A stretch of DNA of 64,000 nt from Mustelus asterias (taxonomy: Eukaryota): contig NC_135818.1 of NCBI RefSeq assembly GCF_964213995.1, positions 44,826,001 to 44,890,000 on the forward strand. The letters are read 5' to 3'. Shown one piece after another: positions 23,948 through 48,706 of this stretch (its first letter is position 1; the number at the start of each line of letters is the position of its first letter). Made by a program: the position numbers and the translations under genes. Below the pieces are notes generated by a model. That model had not been told where the DNA came from and ran no database searches. It was given only the letters and a program-made list of their open reading frames with translations.

Positions 23948-25380
23948 GGAATCTGAAACCAAAAGAGAAAATGCTGGAAAATCTCAGCAGGTCTGACAGC
24001 ACCTGTAAGGAGAGAAAAGAGCTGACGTTTTGAATCCAGATGACCCTTTGTTAAAGCTAAAAGGCATAGAAAGTAAAAGATATTTATACGACAGGGGGAG
24101 GGAATGAAAGATGAGTCATAGCCACAGAAACCAGGGGAAAAGATTGCTAATGGCTGTCCACAGAGAGAATAAAGGGTGTGAATGGCCAAACAGCAGAGAA
24201 GCTAAAATGAAGATGTTGGGGGAGGGGAGGGAATGGATGGGACAGAGGTAGAATTCAGAAAAGGGGAAGCAAAGGGGGAGAAAAGGTAAGGGAAGGGGGA
24301 TAAAGTAGGGGGAAAGAGTGGGGGGGAAGAAAAATGAAGAAAGTCAATAAAGAAATGAAAGGTCGAGAACAGTAAAAAATTAAATAAAATAGAATGAAAA
24401 CAAAGGGGTTGAGGTGGGATAAAGCAAATCATCTGAAGTTGCTGAATTCGATGTTGCGACCGGAAGGTTGTAAAGTGCCCAGCCAGAAGATGAGATGCTG
24501 TTCCTTCAGTTTGCGTTGAGATTCACTGGAACATTGCAGCAAGCCAAGGACAGACATGTGGGTATGGGAGCAGGATCGTGTGTTAAAATGGCAAGGTCAA
24601 GATCCTGACTGCGCACAGACCAAAGGTGCTCAGCAAAGTGATCGCCCAGTCTACGCTTGGTCTTTCCGATATAGAGGAGACCACATTGGGAGCAGTGAAT
24701 GCAATAGACCAAATTGAAAGAGGTGCAAGTGAAACACTGCTTAACCTGGAATGAATGTTTTGGACCTTGGATGGTGAGCCTGGAAGAGGTAAAGGGGCAG
24801 GTGTTATACCTTCTGCAATTGCATGGGAAGGTGCCAGGAGTGACGGGAGAGGTGTTGGGTATAGTGGAGGAGTGGACTAGGTTATCCCGGAGGGAATGGT
24901 GTCTGTGGAATGCTGACAGAGGGAGTGAAGGGAAGATGTGTTTGGTGGTGGCATCACACTGGAGTTGGTGAAAATGGCGGAGGATTATGTTTTGCATGCG
25001 GAGGCTGGTGGGGTGAAATGTGAGAACAAGGAGGACTCTATCCCTGTTCTGGGAAGGAGGGGAGGGGATGAGAGTCATGGTGCAGGAGATGGTCTGCACG
25101 CTGTTGAGAGCCCTGTCGACAACTTTAGATGGAATCCACGGTTGAAGAAAAAGGAACACATATTAGAAGCACCACTTTGGAAAGTGGCATCAGCGGAACA
25201 AATGAGAAGGAGGTGAAGGAGCTGAGAGAAAGGGATGGAGTCCTTACAGGGTGTAGGGTGTGAAGATCTGTAGTCCAGATAGCTGTGGGAGTCAGTGGGC
25301 TTGTAGTAGATATTGATAGATAGTCTATTGCTGGAAATGGAGACAGAAAGATCAAGGAAGGGAAGGGAAATGCCTGAGAT
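23948..25380 (-). mobile_element. Penelope-like element (Neptune-type), RT C-terminus, Zn-linker, GIY-YIG and terminal repeat
   Basis: ORF 24506-25159: LVLTFHP, PCNCRRYNTC linker, FTCTSFNLVYCIHCSQCGLLYIGKTKRRLGDHFAEHL. Confidence 0.9.
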
Positions 25381-27296
25381 GTTACAGGTGAAGGCGATTG
25401 AAGATCCACAGCAGACAGAGTCAGGAAACCGGCACTCGGAGGGATGTTGAAGAGCAGGACACTGCTGAGCCCCTGGCTGATGATGTGCCCCTGGGTCCGG
25501 TCATCCCACAGCTGCTGGAGTTGCAAATTCAGGGCCTTGAGAGTCAGGAAGGGATGACAACAGCCTTCCTTCGAACCACAAGGCTGACAGGAGGGGTACG
25601 ATCGCTTTCTGTGTGAGGAGATGGTGCCGTAACTCCAATGCAATTATGCCAATGCTGTAAAGGTGGCTTCCGCAGCAGGAAGTTTGGTGCAGGATCTGCA
25701 CTCCATGGTAGGAGATGTCCACTCCATGGTTCAGCTCATGACCTCCATGGTTGAGGGCATGTGCTCCATGGTGCAGGGCATACATTGCATGGTGCAGGCA
25801 CAAGTGCGAATCCATGAGTGTCAACGCCAAATGACGGTGGGGCTTCTGGATCTCACTCCAACTGCCCTTCTAACCCTTGGAGGAGCAGAAAGGCCCCTGG
25901 GCACCTGAAGGGAAGAGGATAGGCAGGAGCACAGCCGAGGGCCTTCCACCCAGGAGATGCTGGGGATGTCCAGTCCATCTGACACCTCACCCCTTGTGAA
26001 CAACACACCTCCAGCCCCGTACACTGAGGAGGGCAACACTGTAACAAATGTGCAGCCTGAAAGTAGGCTCAGAGTCTCAAGATCAAGGTCACCAGGGGAC
26101 ATCCGCCAAGGTAACCTCTTGCAACAGGGTAGGGAAGGCAGCAGGCCACCTCAACCTCAGCTGAAGATCCCTATATAGTGGGAGGGTGAGGAAGTGAAAG
26201 AAACTATAGGGAACTAGTGGGCACGGGTGAACCTAAGCACCGGTAGAGATAATTAACCATTGTAATATTGCTCTTGCATTGAACATCACTTTGCTCACCT
26301 ACAGATACTCCACCCTGTTATCTCATGGCACCATGCTCCAAAAACCCCCACATACTCAGCTTCATTGCTATGCAGTGTGAGAATGTCAGCACTATGTCCT
26401 TCCCACCTCCCACACTGATGACTCAGTAAAGATGCACTGCTGCTGGCACAGGCACCCCCAGCTCCCCTCCTACAAACCCCTCATCCATGGAAGGTGACAC
26501 CTCCCCCACCCCCAGCATCAACGCTCATGCCTCTCATGTCTGCCACTCTTCTCCAGTGATGAGGAGGCCAAAGGCTGACAAAGTGCTGAGAGCCTTGGAT
26601 ACAAGGTGGATGTGAACACCAGGACTCCTGACCTCGGAGGGGGCTGCAGTAGCTGGGATTTGTCATCCAGCATCTCTGAATCCCATGATAAGCCCGTTCA
26701 GCTCTCTGTCAGGTAGGAGTCAGGCATATCGCTGAGGATGAGAGGAGCATCACTCTGTCCTCACTGCAAGTCAACATTATTCTCCAGAAGAGCCTGGCCA
26801 ATGGCTTTAGTGTCCTGCCCATAAATGTAGGCACCTTCAAAAGGACCTTCTGCAGACACTGCAGCCGGAATTTTACCGCCTCACCCACCCAGGAATCGGG
26901 CAGGCGAGGCTCGCATAACAGAATTCACCGTTGGCCTCAGGCAGGATTTTACAAGTCTTGCCCGAGTGAGGTCGTAAACTCCCGACCACCCCAATGAGTC
27001 AATGTCAGATCCCATGGAGAGAGAGCTCTTCACTCACTGTTACTGGTTGTCCCCAAAATGAGAAGCTATGAGGGCATTTCTAGTCTTTGACCCCACGAGG
27101 CCACTGGTCATTGCCCAAGATCCTTCCTCCGCATCTTCCTCCTCGCCGCTCTCCTCGACCTCTTCTTCATCCAAAGAGAAGTGGCACTCCTCCATCTACT
27201 CCTGGTCCAGCTGCTCCCCCCACTGCAATGATAGGTTGTGCAGAGTGCAACAGACCACTCTGACGTGAGACACCCTCTGGGGCTTGTATTGGAGAG
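25381..27296. mobile_element. PIF/Harbinger remnant: putative accessory ORF (+) convergent with transposase C-terminus (-)
   Basis: Minus strand 27295-27080 reads LQYKPQRVSHVRVVCCTLHNL then an acidic tail; plus strand has a heptad-repeat frame (25663-25908). Confidence 0.65.
26863..26987. mobile_element. Short Harbinger-type MITE
   Basis: gccggaattttacc / cgtaaactcccgacc; matches 1564-1688. Confidence 0.65.
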
Positions 27297-30456: not shown

Positions 30457-32356
30457 CATAGAACATAGAACATAGAACATAGAACAGTACAGCACAGAAC
30501 AGGCCCTTCGGCCCACGATGTTGTGCCGAGCTTTATCTGAAACCAAGATCAAGCTATCCCACTCCCTATCATCCTGGTGTGCTCCATGTGCCTATCCAAT
30601 AACCGCTTAAATGTTTCTAAAGTGTCTGACTCCACTATCACTGCAGGCAGTCCATTCCACACCCCAACCACTCTCTGCGTAAAGAACCTACCTCTGATAT
30701 CCGTCCTGTATCTCCCACCACGAACCCTATAGTTATGCCCCCTTGTAATAGCTCCATCCACCCGAGGAAATAGTCTTTGAACGTTCACTCTATCTATCCC
30801 CTTCATCATTTTATACACCTCTATCAAGTCTCCCCTCAGCCGCCTCCGCTCCAGAGAGAATAGCCCTAGCTCCCTCAACCTTTCCTCATATGACCTACCC
30901 TCCAAACCAGGCAGCATCCTGGTAAATCTCCTCTGCACTCCTTCCAGCGCTTCCACATCCTTCCTATAGTGAGGTGACCAGAACTGCACACAATATTCCA
31001 AATGTGGTCTCACCAAGGTCCTGTACAGTTGCAGCATAACCCCACGGCTCTTAAACTCCAACCCCCTGTTAATAAAGGCTAACACACTACAGGCCTTCTT
31101 CACAGCTCTATCCACTTGAGTGGCAACCTTTAGAGATCTGTGGATATGGACCCCAAGATCTCTCTGTTCCTCCACAGTCTTCAGAACCCTACCTTTGACC
31201 CTGTAATCCACATTTAAATTTGTCCTACCAAAATGAATCACCTCACATTTATCAGGGTTAAACTCCATTTGCCATTTTTCAGCCCAGCTTTGCATCCTAT
31301 CTATGTCTCTTTGCAGCCTACAACAGCCCTCCACCTCATCCACTACTCCACCAATCTTGGTGTCATCAGCAAATTTACTGATCCACCCTTCAGCCCCCTC
31401 CTCTAAGTCATTAATAAAAATCACAAAGAGCAGAGGACCAAGCACTGATCCCTGCGGCACACCGCTAGCAACCTGCCTCCAATCCGAAAATTTTCCATCG
31501 ACCACCACCCTCTGTCTTCGGTCAGACAGCCAGTTGCCTATCCAATCGGCCAACTTTCCCTCTATCCCACACCTCCTCACTTTCATCATAAGCCGACCAT
31601 GGGGGACCTTATCAAACGCCTTACTAAAATCCATGTATATGACATCAACTGCCCTACCTTCATCAACACACTTAGTTACCTCCTCAAAAAATTCTATCAA
31701 ATTTGTGAGGCACGACTTGCCCTTCACGAATCCGTGCTGACTATCTCGGATTAATCCGCATCTTTCTAAATGGTCGTAAATCCCATCCCTAAGGACCCTT
31801 TCCATCAATTTACCAACCACCGAAGTAAGACTAACCGGTCTATAATTACCAGGGTCATTTCTATTCCCTTTCTTAAACAGAGGAACAACATTCGCCATTC
31901 TCCAGTCCTCTGGCACCATCCCCGTGGACAGCGAGGACCCAAAGATCAACGCCAAAGGCTCTGCAATCTCATCCCTTGCCTCCCAAAGAATCCTAGGATA
32001 CATTTCATCAGGCCCAGGGGACTTATCGACCTTCAGTTTATTCAAAACTGCCAAGACATCCTCCCTCCGAACATCTATTTCCTCCAGCCTATTAGCCTGT
32101 AACACCTTCTCTTCCTCAAAAACATGGCCCCTCTCCTTGGTGAACACTGAAGAAAAGTATTCAATCATCACCTCGCCTATCTCTACTGACTCCATACACA
32201 AGTTCCCACTACTGTCCTTGACCGGCCCTAACCTCACCCTGGTCATTCTTTTATTCCTCACATAAGAGTAAAAAGCCTTGGGGTTTTCCTTGATCCGACC
32301 CGCCAAGGACTTCTCATGTCCCCTCCTAGCTCTCCTAAGCCCCTTTTTCAGCTACT
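30457..32356 (-). mobile_element. Young 5'-truncated CR1 (HER1-type) LINE
   Basis: Uninterrupted RT frame, short 3' UTR and (ttctatg)4 tail at 30457-30484. Confidence 0.95.
30549..32306 (-). CDS. CR1 ORF2 reverse transcriptase domain and C-terminus (585 aa, lacks endonuclease)
   Basis: KSPGPD, NYRPVSLTS, QHGF, DFSKAFDKV, GVPQGSVLGP, FADD and RPHLEYC motifs without stops. Confidence 0.9.
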   Translation of the reverse strand: MAGRIKENPKAFYSYVRNKRMTRVRLGPVKDSSGNLCMESVEIGEVMIEYFSSVFTKERGHVFEEEKVLQANRLEEIDVRREDVLAVLNKLKVDKSPGPDEMYPRILWEARDEIAEPLALIFGSSLSTGMVPEDWRMANVVPLFKKGNRNDPGNYRPVSLTSVVGKLMERVLRDGIYDHLERCGLIRDSQHGFVKGKSCLTNLIEFFEEVTKCVDEGRAVDVIYMDFSKAFDKVPHGRLMMKVRRCGIEGKLADWIGNWLSDRRQRVVVDGKFSDWRQVASGVPQGSVLGPLLFVIFINDLEEGAEGWISKFADDTKIGGVVDEVEGCCRLQRDIDRMQSWAEKWQMEFNPDKCEVIHFGRTNLNVDYRVKGRVLKTVEEQRDLGVHIHRSLKVATQVDRAVKKACSVLAFINRGLEFKSRGVMLQLYRTLVRPHLEYCVQFWSPHYRKDVEALEGVQRRFTRMLPGLEGRSYEERLRELGLFSLERRRLRGDLIEVYKMMKGIDRVNVQRLFPRVDGAITRGHNYRVRGGRYRTDIRGRFFTQRVVGVWNGLPAVIVESDTLETFKRLLDRHMEHTRMIGSGIA

Positions 32357-41158: not shown

Positions 41159-41442
41159 TAGCTTGTAGAATCTCACTAGCTGTTCTGTCTGGAGACAATA
41201 CACATCTCTTTAACCTGTGTTGAATGCTCCCTCCACCCACATTATCTGTACCTTTAAGGCCTGGCTGGCTGTAGAGATTTGCATTCTAATTAGTATTCTG
41301 TAACTTGATTTCTGTGTCTGTGCACTGTTGGAGAACAGATATCCACTCCATCTGATGAAGGAGCTGTGCTCCGAAAGCTTATGATATTTGCTACCAAATA
41401 AACCTGTTGGACTTTAACCTGGTGTTGTGAGACTTCTTACTG
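41159..41442 (+). mobile_element. Short PLE terminal insertion
   Basis: Perfect 14-bp TSD tgcctcacagcgcc; ends in ccaaataaacctgttggactttaacctggtgttgt, shared with 48337-48522. Confidence 0.85.
41349..41383 (+). ncRNA. Minimal type I hammerhead ribozyme motif
   Basis: cat-CTGATGA-a-ggagc(tgt)gctcc-GAAA-gc-TT-atg: core boxes, 5-bp stem II, palindromic AGCT stem III, stem I cat/atg. Confidence 0.75.
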
Positions 41443-43140
41443 TGCCTCACAGCGCCAGGGACCTGGGTTCGATTCTTGGCTTGGGTCACGGTGTGGAGTT
41501 TAGACTTTCTCTCTGTTTCTGTGTGGGTTTCCTCCGGGTGCTCTGGTTTCCTCCCACAGTCCAAAGATGTGCAGGTTAGGTGGATAGGCCATGCTAAATT
41601 GCCCCTTCGTGTCAGGGAGACCAGATACGGTAAATGCATGGGGTTATGGGGATAGGGCTTGGCTGGGATTATGCTCAGTGCAGACTCGATGGGAAAAATA
41701 GCCTCCTTCTGCACTGTAGGATTCTATGATTCTATGAAAGCAAAAAGTCCATGATCAGACCATCTGCAGTTTGCACTTCATGTCAGGTAGCAGGATAAGG
41801 GTGAAGTAACACTTGGGAAGGGGAACTAGACAGAAATATCCCACTATCCTGAATATTCTCATGTAATGGCCTCAGTTGCAGCCAAGCCAAAGATGTTTCC
41901 TCCAAAGGAGAAGCAGGTATATCTGTCTCTCACATGCTCTCTACTGCTCCCTATGGTTACCTACTGCTTTCACCTCCAGGAAGGAGAGAAGAATGGCAGT
42001 GATTGTTTTATTATGTGTTGGATGAAATGCCTGCCATAGCTGTAAATATGCAGGTATGTGGAAGCTGCAAGGTTCGGTTATGAGTTTGACAGCATTGACA
42101 AGTCTTGTGAGAGTGATGTGGAGTTAGGCATGAGTCCTGGTTGCGGCAAGGGGTGTAATGCATTGAATAATATCAGAGGTTAGTGCCCCAATTGAAGATT
42201 AATTCACTGAACTTGAATGCATTTGTTAGGTCATTTAATTTTTTCTAGCACTACCTCCATAAAAGTCACAATCTCAAACCTGGCCCCCACCTTCCTTACA
42301 CCCCCTACACTGGGGCTTTCCAGCCAGGGCTCCACCAATATCTGGGACTTCCCTGAAGTCCAGTTTCCATTTGATCCTCTTCTACAGTCCCAGGAATAGC
42401 CAACACTCAAACCTGATGCTGCCAGGACTACAGAGCTGCTGATTGGATAGACCAACAGCTCCCTAATGTGGGGCAACAGATGAAAGTGGAGGTCACAGCC
42501 TATTAAAGTCCGGCAGAGCGTTAAATAACCGCAGGGCAGCTGGAACCGCCGGGGATGCATTCCCATCGATTCTTTAGCTGGGCCATCCAAAAACCCCTGC
42601 CCCTGGTATTTTTACCCATGGCTAATGCTATTCCTTCACAGCTTAACATGGATTTCAATGTCATATGTGACTTTGAGAAATTAAGCTGTCTGAAAGGAAG
42701 GTAAATTGGACAGCAACATCCGCTGTTAACGCATGAAATATGAACTCAATTCGAATTGCTCCATAATAACGCCAAGCATTCTTAAGCTTGTCATTATTCT
42801 GAATGCAAAATCTGAGCTATCTATAAGATGCCACTGTCACATTTCAGTATTTAAACAATGAGATGATAATATGACCACATCATTACTAATAATAGTGCAC
42901 CTGCAGAATTAATGAATTAAAATCTTATCCACTTTTTAATTGGAGTTGAGTTTCATTTTATATTTTAACAAAATTTATTCTTTATCTTTTGAAATGAACA
43001 ATATATCTGATATTAATTCTTGGTTTGGTTTGACAAGAATATGCCAATGTTTCAAATCCAGTAAGTGTTTCATGTACTTAATAGTGGAACTATTAGTAAA
43101 ATGCGTTATAATGCTAACCTATATTGAAGGCTAGATTTAT

Positions 43141-47710: not shown

Positions 47711-47893
47711 CCAGTGTGAGTGATTGGGGAGAGGGGGAATCTGTACTTCACCAAGGTGTGGACTCGAATTGTTGTGCCTGACTGTTCCTGGATAATTATT
47801 CAGCTAAGTCCTGTGGAACTGCCCAAAGTCTCTGACTCCAATTCAGAGTCGGAGACATTCACAGAGGTTCCTGAGGAACAGGAATTTAAACTT

Positions 47894-48127
47894 TGTGGTA
47901 AACCACTGTTAGCTTATTACCTGTATATGTGACATGCCTGGACACATCCCTGCCGGCCCTACCTGAGACTCCTCCCCCCCCGGTCCAGGTATAAAGGCGA
48001 CTGCTCCCCACCCCCCTGCCTCAGTCTGGACCAGTTCATCGGCATGGGTGTGCTCCAAGTCTTTTGCTAATAAAAGCCTATTTGTTCTTGCATACAAACT
48101 AGTCTTTGCTCGATTGATGGTGCATCA
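47894..48127 (+). mobile_element. Solo LTR (234 bp)
   Basis: TG...CA termini; 5-bp TSD AACTT; TATAAA at 47990; AATAAA at 48069. Confidence 0.88.
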
Positions 48128-48336
48128 AACTTCCTGGACATTTCGACAGAAGTCAGCACATTGAGAGAGCCACAGATCCCAGCATGTACATTGGGCCATG
48201 CATCGGATCACCGACAATCCAGAGACCGGAAGATCTGTGCCAATATTAATAAGACCTGTGCATTTTTTGATATCATGCAAGTGGTGTCTGAGATTTTTGA
48301 AGAGCCAATTAGAATGGTGTCACTGGGATTTTCCAT

Positions 48337-48522
48337 GTAAGAAGTTTAACAACACCAGGTTAAAGTCCAACAGGTTTATTTGGTAGCAAAAGCCACACAA
48401 GCTTTCGGAGCTCCAAGCCCCTTCGTCAGGTGAAGAAGGGGCCTGGAGCTCCGAAAGCTTGTGTGGCTTTTGCTACCAAATAAACCTGTTGGACTTTAAC
48501 CTGGTGTTGTTAAACTTCTTAC
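48337..48522. mobile_element. Fold-back (inverted) PLE terminal insertion
   Basis: 88-bp arms with one mismatch and a 10-nt spacer; TSD ggattttccat(gta). Confidence 0.92.
48396..48432 (-). ncRNA. Minimal type I hammerhead ribozyme motif
   Basis: cac-CTGACGA-a-ggggct(tgg)agctcc-GAAA-gc-TT-gtg on the minus strand. Confidence 0.78.
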
Positions 48523-48706
48523 TGGATTTTCCATGTAGCCAGATCTGACAGCACCAAGCTGCCCATTGAAATTACTGTGGGAACTGTCCAATACTTTCTC
48601 CAGCTGAAGATCAAACTGATCTACTGTCAGAAAGGTCAATAATACCTTTGCCAATCTGAAGACTCAGGTGATCCAGCATAGCAATTCCTCCAATCTAACA
48701 CTCATT

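Follow-up and report, generated by a model that had tools for sequence, protein, structure and literature searches.

The insertion at 48326-48537 of the window, i.e. the whole stretch of 64,000 nucleotides analysed here, is almost certainly a coding-free, head-to-head stub of a young and very abundant Penelope-like element, presumably of Neptune type. Its layout is already known and the copy itself is ordinary; the interest rests on the evidence from its family, whose arm junctions seem, with slightly better than even chances, to record two RNA 5' ends genome-wide, namely a TATA-box start, which is the class of this copy, and the cut of a hammerhead ribozyme. If this is true, the minimal Penelope hammerhead would cut in the germline and the cut RNA would still be reverse-transcribed. 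The tens of thousands of young insertions make two questions testable from genome sequence alone, that of in vivo cutting by minimal hammerheads, which bears on PMC4209133 and PMC11167929, and that of the origin of inverted structures, which bears on PMC3846280 and PMC8557442.

Structure of the insertion and its parent element

The inverted arms (48337-48428 and 48431-48522) comprise 92 nt each, are 98% complementary and leave a gap of 2 nt; alternatively, the palindrome can be read as 88 + 10 + 88 nt, which are the arms of the preliminary description. Counted from the tail end of the element, i.e. in nucleotides before its ATG, the left arm (48337-48433, minus strand) covers positions 37 to 133 of the pseudo-LTR and is 95% identical over 97 nt to the natural copy L178, and the right arm (48431-48523, plus strand) covers positions 128 to 36 of the same pseudo-LTR. 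Both arms lack the tail, and they share a 3-nt overlap (microhomology) at their joint (48431-48433). The target-site duplication consists of a left copy at 48326-48339 (plus strand, 14 nt, or 11 nt with the final three bases assigned to the element) and a right copy at 48524-48537 (plus strand), which is defined by the direct repeat and by the empty site in a relative. The arms and the flanking repeat described earlier could thus be confirmed, while the single mismatch reported between the arms has to be corrected to two substitutions private to this copy, one per arm (48425 and 48443).

A contig of run X5 (relative, organism B) joins 48325 straight to 48524 with one target copy left, and from this we conclude that the 198 bases represent the insertion plus one target copy. 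The search for an empty site in relatives proposed in the preliminary description was therefore successful, and its view that the insertion is a young Penelope-like one, free of coding sequence and with one end inverted and truncated, is borne out. Since a probe for the arm has three matches in the window compared to 0.00 in 100 shuffles, the arm palindrome is not due to chance. An assembly or library artefact, which had been considered as an alternative, has a negligible probability: among the sequencing-run contigs aligned to the locus none covers the whole palindrome, but the target duplication, the empty site, the two private substitutions differing between the arms and the thousands of similar palindromes in the genome all speak against it. 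Among the related copies inspected, arm lengths cover the whole range and reach 1.9 kb per arm in L091. We predict that the stub at this site is inert, being without a promoter and without an ORF and with its ribozyme buried in a 90-bp hairpin. An Rfam scan of the palindrome returned the hairpin models mir-607 and mir-879, both below their gathering cut-offs; we regard these as generic hairpin scores and rejected a microRNA reading.

Nearly complete parent copies are L178 (G000:C1:2162300-2166100), with an open frame of 915 codons (an ORF of about 900 aa) and an inverted arm of 291 nt, and L126, with a frame of 821 codons. The reverse transcriptase (RT) domain was detected in L178 (Pfam RVT_1, E 4e-10) and in L091 (RVT_1, E 2e-10); GIY-YIG was found in L091 with an E of 2e-4 and 21.9 bits, slightly below the cut-off of 22.6, and was not reported for the L178 frame at E ≤ 0.01 in the profile search. 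In the element translations, a C-terminal GIY-YIG motif is visible that contains two cysteines and has histidines downstream of it. The linker that separates RT from EN in L091, L126 and L178 reads C-x4-C-xx-C and fits the CX2-5CxxC linker that defines the Neptune and Nematis clades (PMC8557442). In the copy L081 the tail continues directly into the ATG of the element ORF. Upstream of this ATG, the element map places a second start at about 31-38, the predicted ribozyme cut at 98, C3 of the hammerhead at 129 and an initiator-like A at 135; a TATA box lies 29 nt above position 135, and young subfamilies have retained variants of it at a distance of 29-30 nt upstream. At the arm junction of L072 (G000:C1 near 1.491 Mb), six or seven repeats of a 45-nt ORF segment are present, which suggests repeated template slippage. 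Two candidate subfamily boundaries were not retained, an arm end at 316-319, since an indel in the reference L091 artificially produces 316, and an arm end at 134, which is not caused by this indel.

In this class of elements, truncated pseudo-LTRs that face each other head to head, with a tail on one side, are known (PMC8557442, PMC3846280, PMC2377424). The family resembles EN+ Penelope-like elements of the Neptune/Nematis type in its RT with C-terminal GIY-YIG and C-x4-C-xx-C linker, and also in its head-to-head pseudo-LTRs, one-sided tail, variable target duplication and microhomology junction (PMC8557442, PMC3846280). This copy differs from typical EN+ insertions in being minimal, with arms under 100 nt and neither ORF nor tail. 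An inverted 5'-truncated pseudo-LTR and the variable target duplication are present, and the absence of the tail is allowed by the definition, since the 30-40 bp tail of EN+ insertions is described as optional and one-sided (PMC8557442, PMC3846280). Very short insertions, with a median of 128 bp, are reported for another clade (PMC9977147).

Recurrence of the junction in the genome

In the genome of 3.68 Gb, we counted 61,909 exact matches to a probe near the outer end of the arm and 16,155 to a probe across the ribozyme. The exact junction of this copy recurs at 314 places, so that it does not represent a singular event. Such a number, together with the 95-99% identity of the best 40 genome matches across the whole palindrome, would also be compatible with a fixed palindromic master copy, amplified as a unit in a MITE- or SINE-like manner. 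We inspected 56 distinct places with the same junction, drawn from the 30 best matches and the first 30 pattern matches. Stem II of the hammerhead was identical in both arms at 39 of these 56 places, and at least eight variants of stem II occurred, which in each case were mirrored between the arms; the tail was located on the left at 16 and on the right at 35 places, with five uncalled, and the target duplication had a median of 13 nt (range 6-16). The first 50 centres listed for a wider pattern were heterogeneous. The mirrored variants, the tail on either side and the heterogeneous centres indicate that the junction recurs and was not inherited from one palindrome, and as judged from these sequences it is formed repeatedly, from different subfamilies. 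A master copy, against which the varying outer ends and duplication lengths as well as the continuum of centres with arms of up to 1.9 kb argue in addition, is already largely refuted and in our judgement very improbable. Fixed ends, a fixed duplication length and descent from a single master, which characterize MITEs, were not found in this family.

In run X5, no contig matches the young ribozyme region (L091:4164-4179) at ≥97%, a gap in contigs that by itself proves nothing. There is a hint that the young subfamily expanded after the split from the relative.

The hammerhead motif and the ends of the arms

The minus strand from 48432 to 48396 carries a minimal type I hammerhead motif and reads CAC-CUGACGA-A-6-bp stem II-GAAA-GCUU-GUG; cleavage is predicted between 48399 and 48398. 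Only 3 bp form stem I (48432-48430 with 48398-48396), which is followed by the core (48429-48423), an extra A (48422), the 6-bp stem II (48421-48407), GAAA (48406-48403) and the palindromic AGCU; the private substitution at 48425 turns core position N7 into C. The sequence is thus the complete minimal motif that had been described. As also stated there, the plus-strand copy in the right arm is broken at the start of the core: it begins at U4 (48431), lacks stem I and has a G instead of C3, which is a substitution reported to eliminate hammerhead cleavage (PMC11167929).

In the palindrome, Rfam gave no hammerhead match at E ≤ 1, and RNAfold obtained the hammerhead fold for neither monomer nor dimer. 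The minus strand folded with -171 kcal/mol when free and with -115 kcal/mol when the hammerhead was enforced, so that about 56 kcal/mol would be needed to free the intact core; these folding energies support the earlier proposal that the long hairpin would mask the ribozyme. Among 17 aligned natural variants, the pairs of stems I and II were kept in 147 of 147 cells, and stem I shows a compensatory change from C-G to U-A at 2.1/1.1 in three rows (covariation score 0.212, reached in 0 of 500 shuffles); this concerns one of nine pairs changing on both sides, in related rows and among variants chosen by a pattern that required the core. The cores, the extra base after A9, G10.1-C11.1 and the palindromic 15.2-16.2 were invariant in all 17 variants, the cores being required by the pattern. 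We take the conservation of the stems as moderate support for a family hammerhead whose cleavage is predicted from sequence. About a dozen arms in L301-L330 have a U instead of C16.2, so that the stem III palindrome is no longer perfect; both arms share this change in L315/L316, which indicates that such RNAs were still copied.

The motif shares the core, the extra base after A9, G10.1-C11.1 and the palindromic stem III with the minimal hammerheads of metazoan Penelope-like elements, and differs from them in the U at position 17, the 6-bp stem II and its burial in a long hairpin (PMC4209133). For the metazoan motifs, pairs located 100-700 bp apart on opposite strands were also noted (PMC4209133). 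Cleavage by minimal Penelope hammerheads is reported to be weak and to proceed in dimers or with the assistance of proteins (PMC4209133, PMC11167929).

Next, we counted palindrome centres genome-wide in four bins of 31 nt. The distribution was bimodal, with 2698 centres around the predicted cut, 1264 in stem II, which is the depleted bin, 2356 on the 5' side of the core, which is the bin of this copy, and 938 beyond. Breakpoints are thus non-random relative to the ribozyme, as had been anticipated. The inversion point of this copy itself does not lie at the cut: its arms end at 133 and 128, i.e. the junction lies 30-35 nt upstream of the predicted cut at 98, and the view of its joint as a mark of ribozyme action is not supported.

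Arms leave the template at 98 in 2442 cases genome-wide, compared to 969 at 99 and 893 at 100. True ends accounted for 22 of the first 30 loci at 98, the other 8 being variants that continue, and for 15 of the 30 loci sampled at 100, position 99 being represented by its raw count alone; this gives an estimate of about 1790 true ends (1360-2100) at 98 versus 450 (300-600) at 100. Among 50 palindromes of the cut bin, the ends without microhomology were located at 98 in 13 cases, at 99-100 in 3 and at 96-97 in 11 (all fine-scale samples stem from contig C1). A sharp upstream edge with a trimmed shoulder at 98 is as expected for run-off from cut RNA, and the arms ending there are likely to represent a trace of ribozyme cutting in living cells. 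When read contigs were aligned to the element, two contig joints returned to the cut position.

The accessible text of PMC4209133 contains no evidence for in vivo cleavage by the metazoan minimal hammerheads; in contrast, the present family carries an apparent genomic footprint of cleavage. In our literature search, in which most subscription journals were out of reach, we found no paper describing such a footprint of Penelope hammerhead cutting. By analogy, the anole Poseidon element PAc provides points against the footprint reading, since its hammerhead mutants are reported to insert normally in vitro and no RNA reads to begin at the cut (PMC11167929).

In the bin of this copy, the commonest ends at 48 of the first 50 listed places were 133 (9), 135 (8) and 128 (7), and 135 was the commonest end without microhomology (8 ends); eight end calls at 111 are due to a subfamily missing from the panel. 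This second peak, which includes this copy, is likely to reflect a transcription start at about 135, 29 nt below the conserved TATA box. As to a G derived from an RNA cap, 11 of 16 ends have a G before position 135 (p 0.25), the partner arm being G-rich there. In the next bin, 13 of 50 places share a 143/143 hotspot, which requires longer templates and is due to a 6-base palindrome there; of the unselected arms, 57 of 101 continue past 143.

A live rival to the start-site reading is a stop at the folded ribozyme: the RT could have stalled, or ends been trimmed, at a folded or protein-bound hammerhead, followed by joining through microhomology or by later deletion of the hairpin tip. The second peak is indeed broad (129-140, its upper edge partly set by the bin limits) and coincides with the 5' strand of stem I, hotspots lie at short palindromes (133/128, 143/143, 105/93), and perfect palindromes are unstable. 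However, the overlap was at most one base in 38 of 48 junctions of this bin (a few ends being miscalled because of the missing subfamily), arms stop at 130-135 even when their partner is far shorter (56-79), the depleted bin is that of stem II, where fold-back homology is most plentiful, and a later deletion would not focus ends on the single base 98. We consider this explanation unlikely, while giving it an appreciable chance. The reading by two RNA 5' ends, which we prefer, makes base-exact predictions for these ends, at 98 and at about 135 nt before the ATG.

Coupling of the arms and the proposed copying mechanism

The two arms of a copy usually represent the same subfamily variant and end at nearby places. 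Arm ends were correlated (Spearman 0.76, 54 pairs at loci picked by outer or ribozyme probes), and they lay within 15 nt of each other in 23 of the 54 pairs versus 5.1 by permutation; even among long pairs, 9 of 25 ended within 20 nt versus 2.0 by permutation. For 17 paired arms that stop at the cut, the partner reaches no further than 101 in 16 cases, compared to 19 of 101 among unselected arms. In 128 of 132 pairs, a single arm begins at the tail end and its partner mostly at 31-38; in four of 132 the tail is absent from both arms, as in this copy. The tail-bearing arm was longer in 17, shorter in 24 and equal in 5 of 46 pairs, and in a second tally longer in 18, shorter in 22 and equal in 5 of 45. 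Coupled ends, a tail on one arm and the lack of a bias in arm length are better accounted for by one RNA being copied twice from target primers than by self-priming.

Fold-back self-priming, in which one cDNA or antisense template folds back and copies itself, was proposed for rotifer Penelope elements (PMC3846280). It would directly account for the matched variants and the matched arm lengths, and TCA-GG-TGA can form a tiny hairpin. A fold-back copy cannot pass the start of its template, yet the tail is found on the loop-bearing arm at 16 of 56 places (on the other arm at 35 of 56), and many junctions are blunt or contain filler. We therefore regard self-priming as improbable.

Probably, both nicked target strands primed the copying of one element RNA, up to near its likely 5' end. 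According to this two-primer model, the target would be nicked in a staggered manner, 11-14 nt apart, and the RT would initiate internally, some 35 nt before the ATG; in this copy it would have done so on both strands, an uncommon case, with one arm usually initiating at the tail end. The template would be an uncleaved mRNA leader whose start lies 29 nt below the TATA box, at about 135 nt before the ATG; the two cDNA ends would then be trimmed by 2 and 7 nt and annealed via three bases, and sister copies with ribozyme-cut RNA as their template would end at 98. If true, a dimeric RT would copy one RNA twice, once per target strand, and the inverted structure and one-sided tail of Penelope-like elements would be explained.

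The anole PAc protein, which is predicted to dimerise, is reported to extend both target strands covalently with antisense cDNA in vitro (PMC11167929), and this element also resembles the present family in having two internal RT start sites that bound the tail (PMC11167929). The extension of both strands from two start sites agrees with the reading by two target-primed copies. The PAc ORF starts at stem II, and unprocessed RNA is the dominant template (PMC11167929); here, in contrast, the tail end is where the ATG lies, and cut RNA is apparently the source of a minority of arms. The copy is also similar to non-LTR retrozymes, which are short, non-coding, hammerhead-bearing and Penelope-derived (bioRxiv 10.64898/2026.07.22.740005). 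Unlike retrozymes, which consist of two or more head-to-tail tandem units with an intact hammerhead in each, it is a head-to-head dead end with a single intact core.

Further repeats were observed in the window. An older pseudo-LTR copy (41164-41443, plus strand, 77% identity) has its own hammerhead with the U-A change in stem I and is bordered by pieces of another repeat, and a distant Penelope-like remnant (24506-25643, minus strand) is 27-32% identical to the L178 ORF at the protein level and includes a stretch similar to GIY-YIG. A second insertion, which comprises 239 bp (47888-48126) and is absent from the X5 contig, runs from TG to CA between short direct repeats; it is solo-LTR-like and high-copy as judged by contig depth. 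A 600-codon open frame at 30549-32351 (minus strand) encodes a LINE-type reverse transcriptase.
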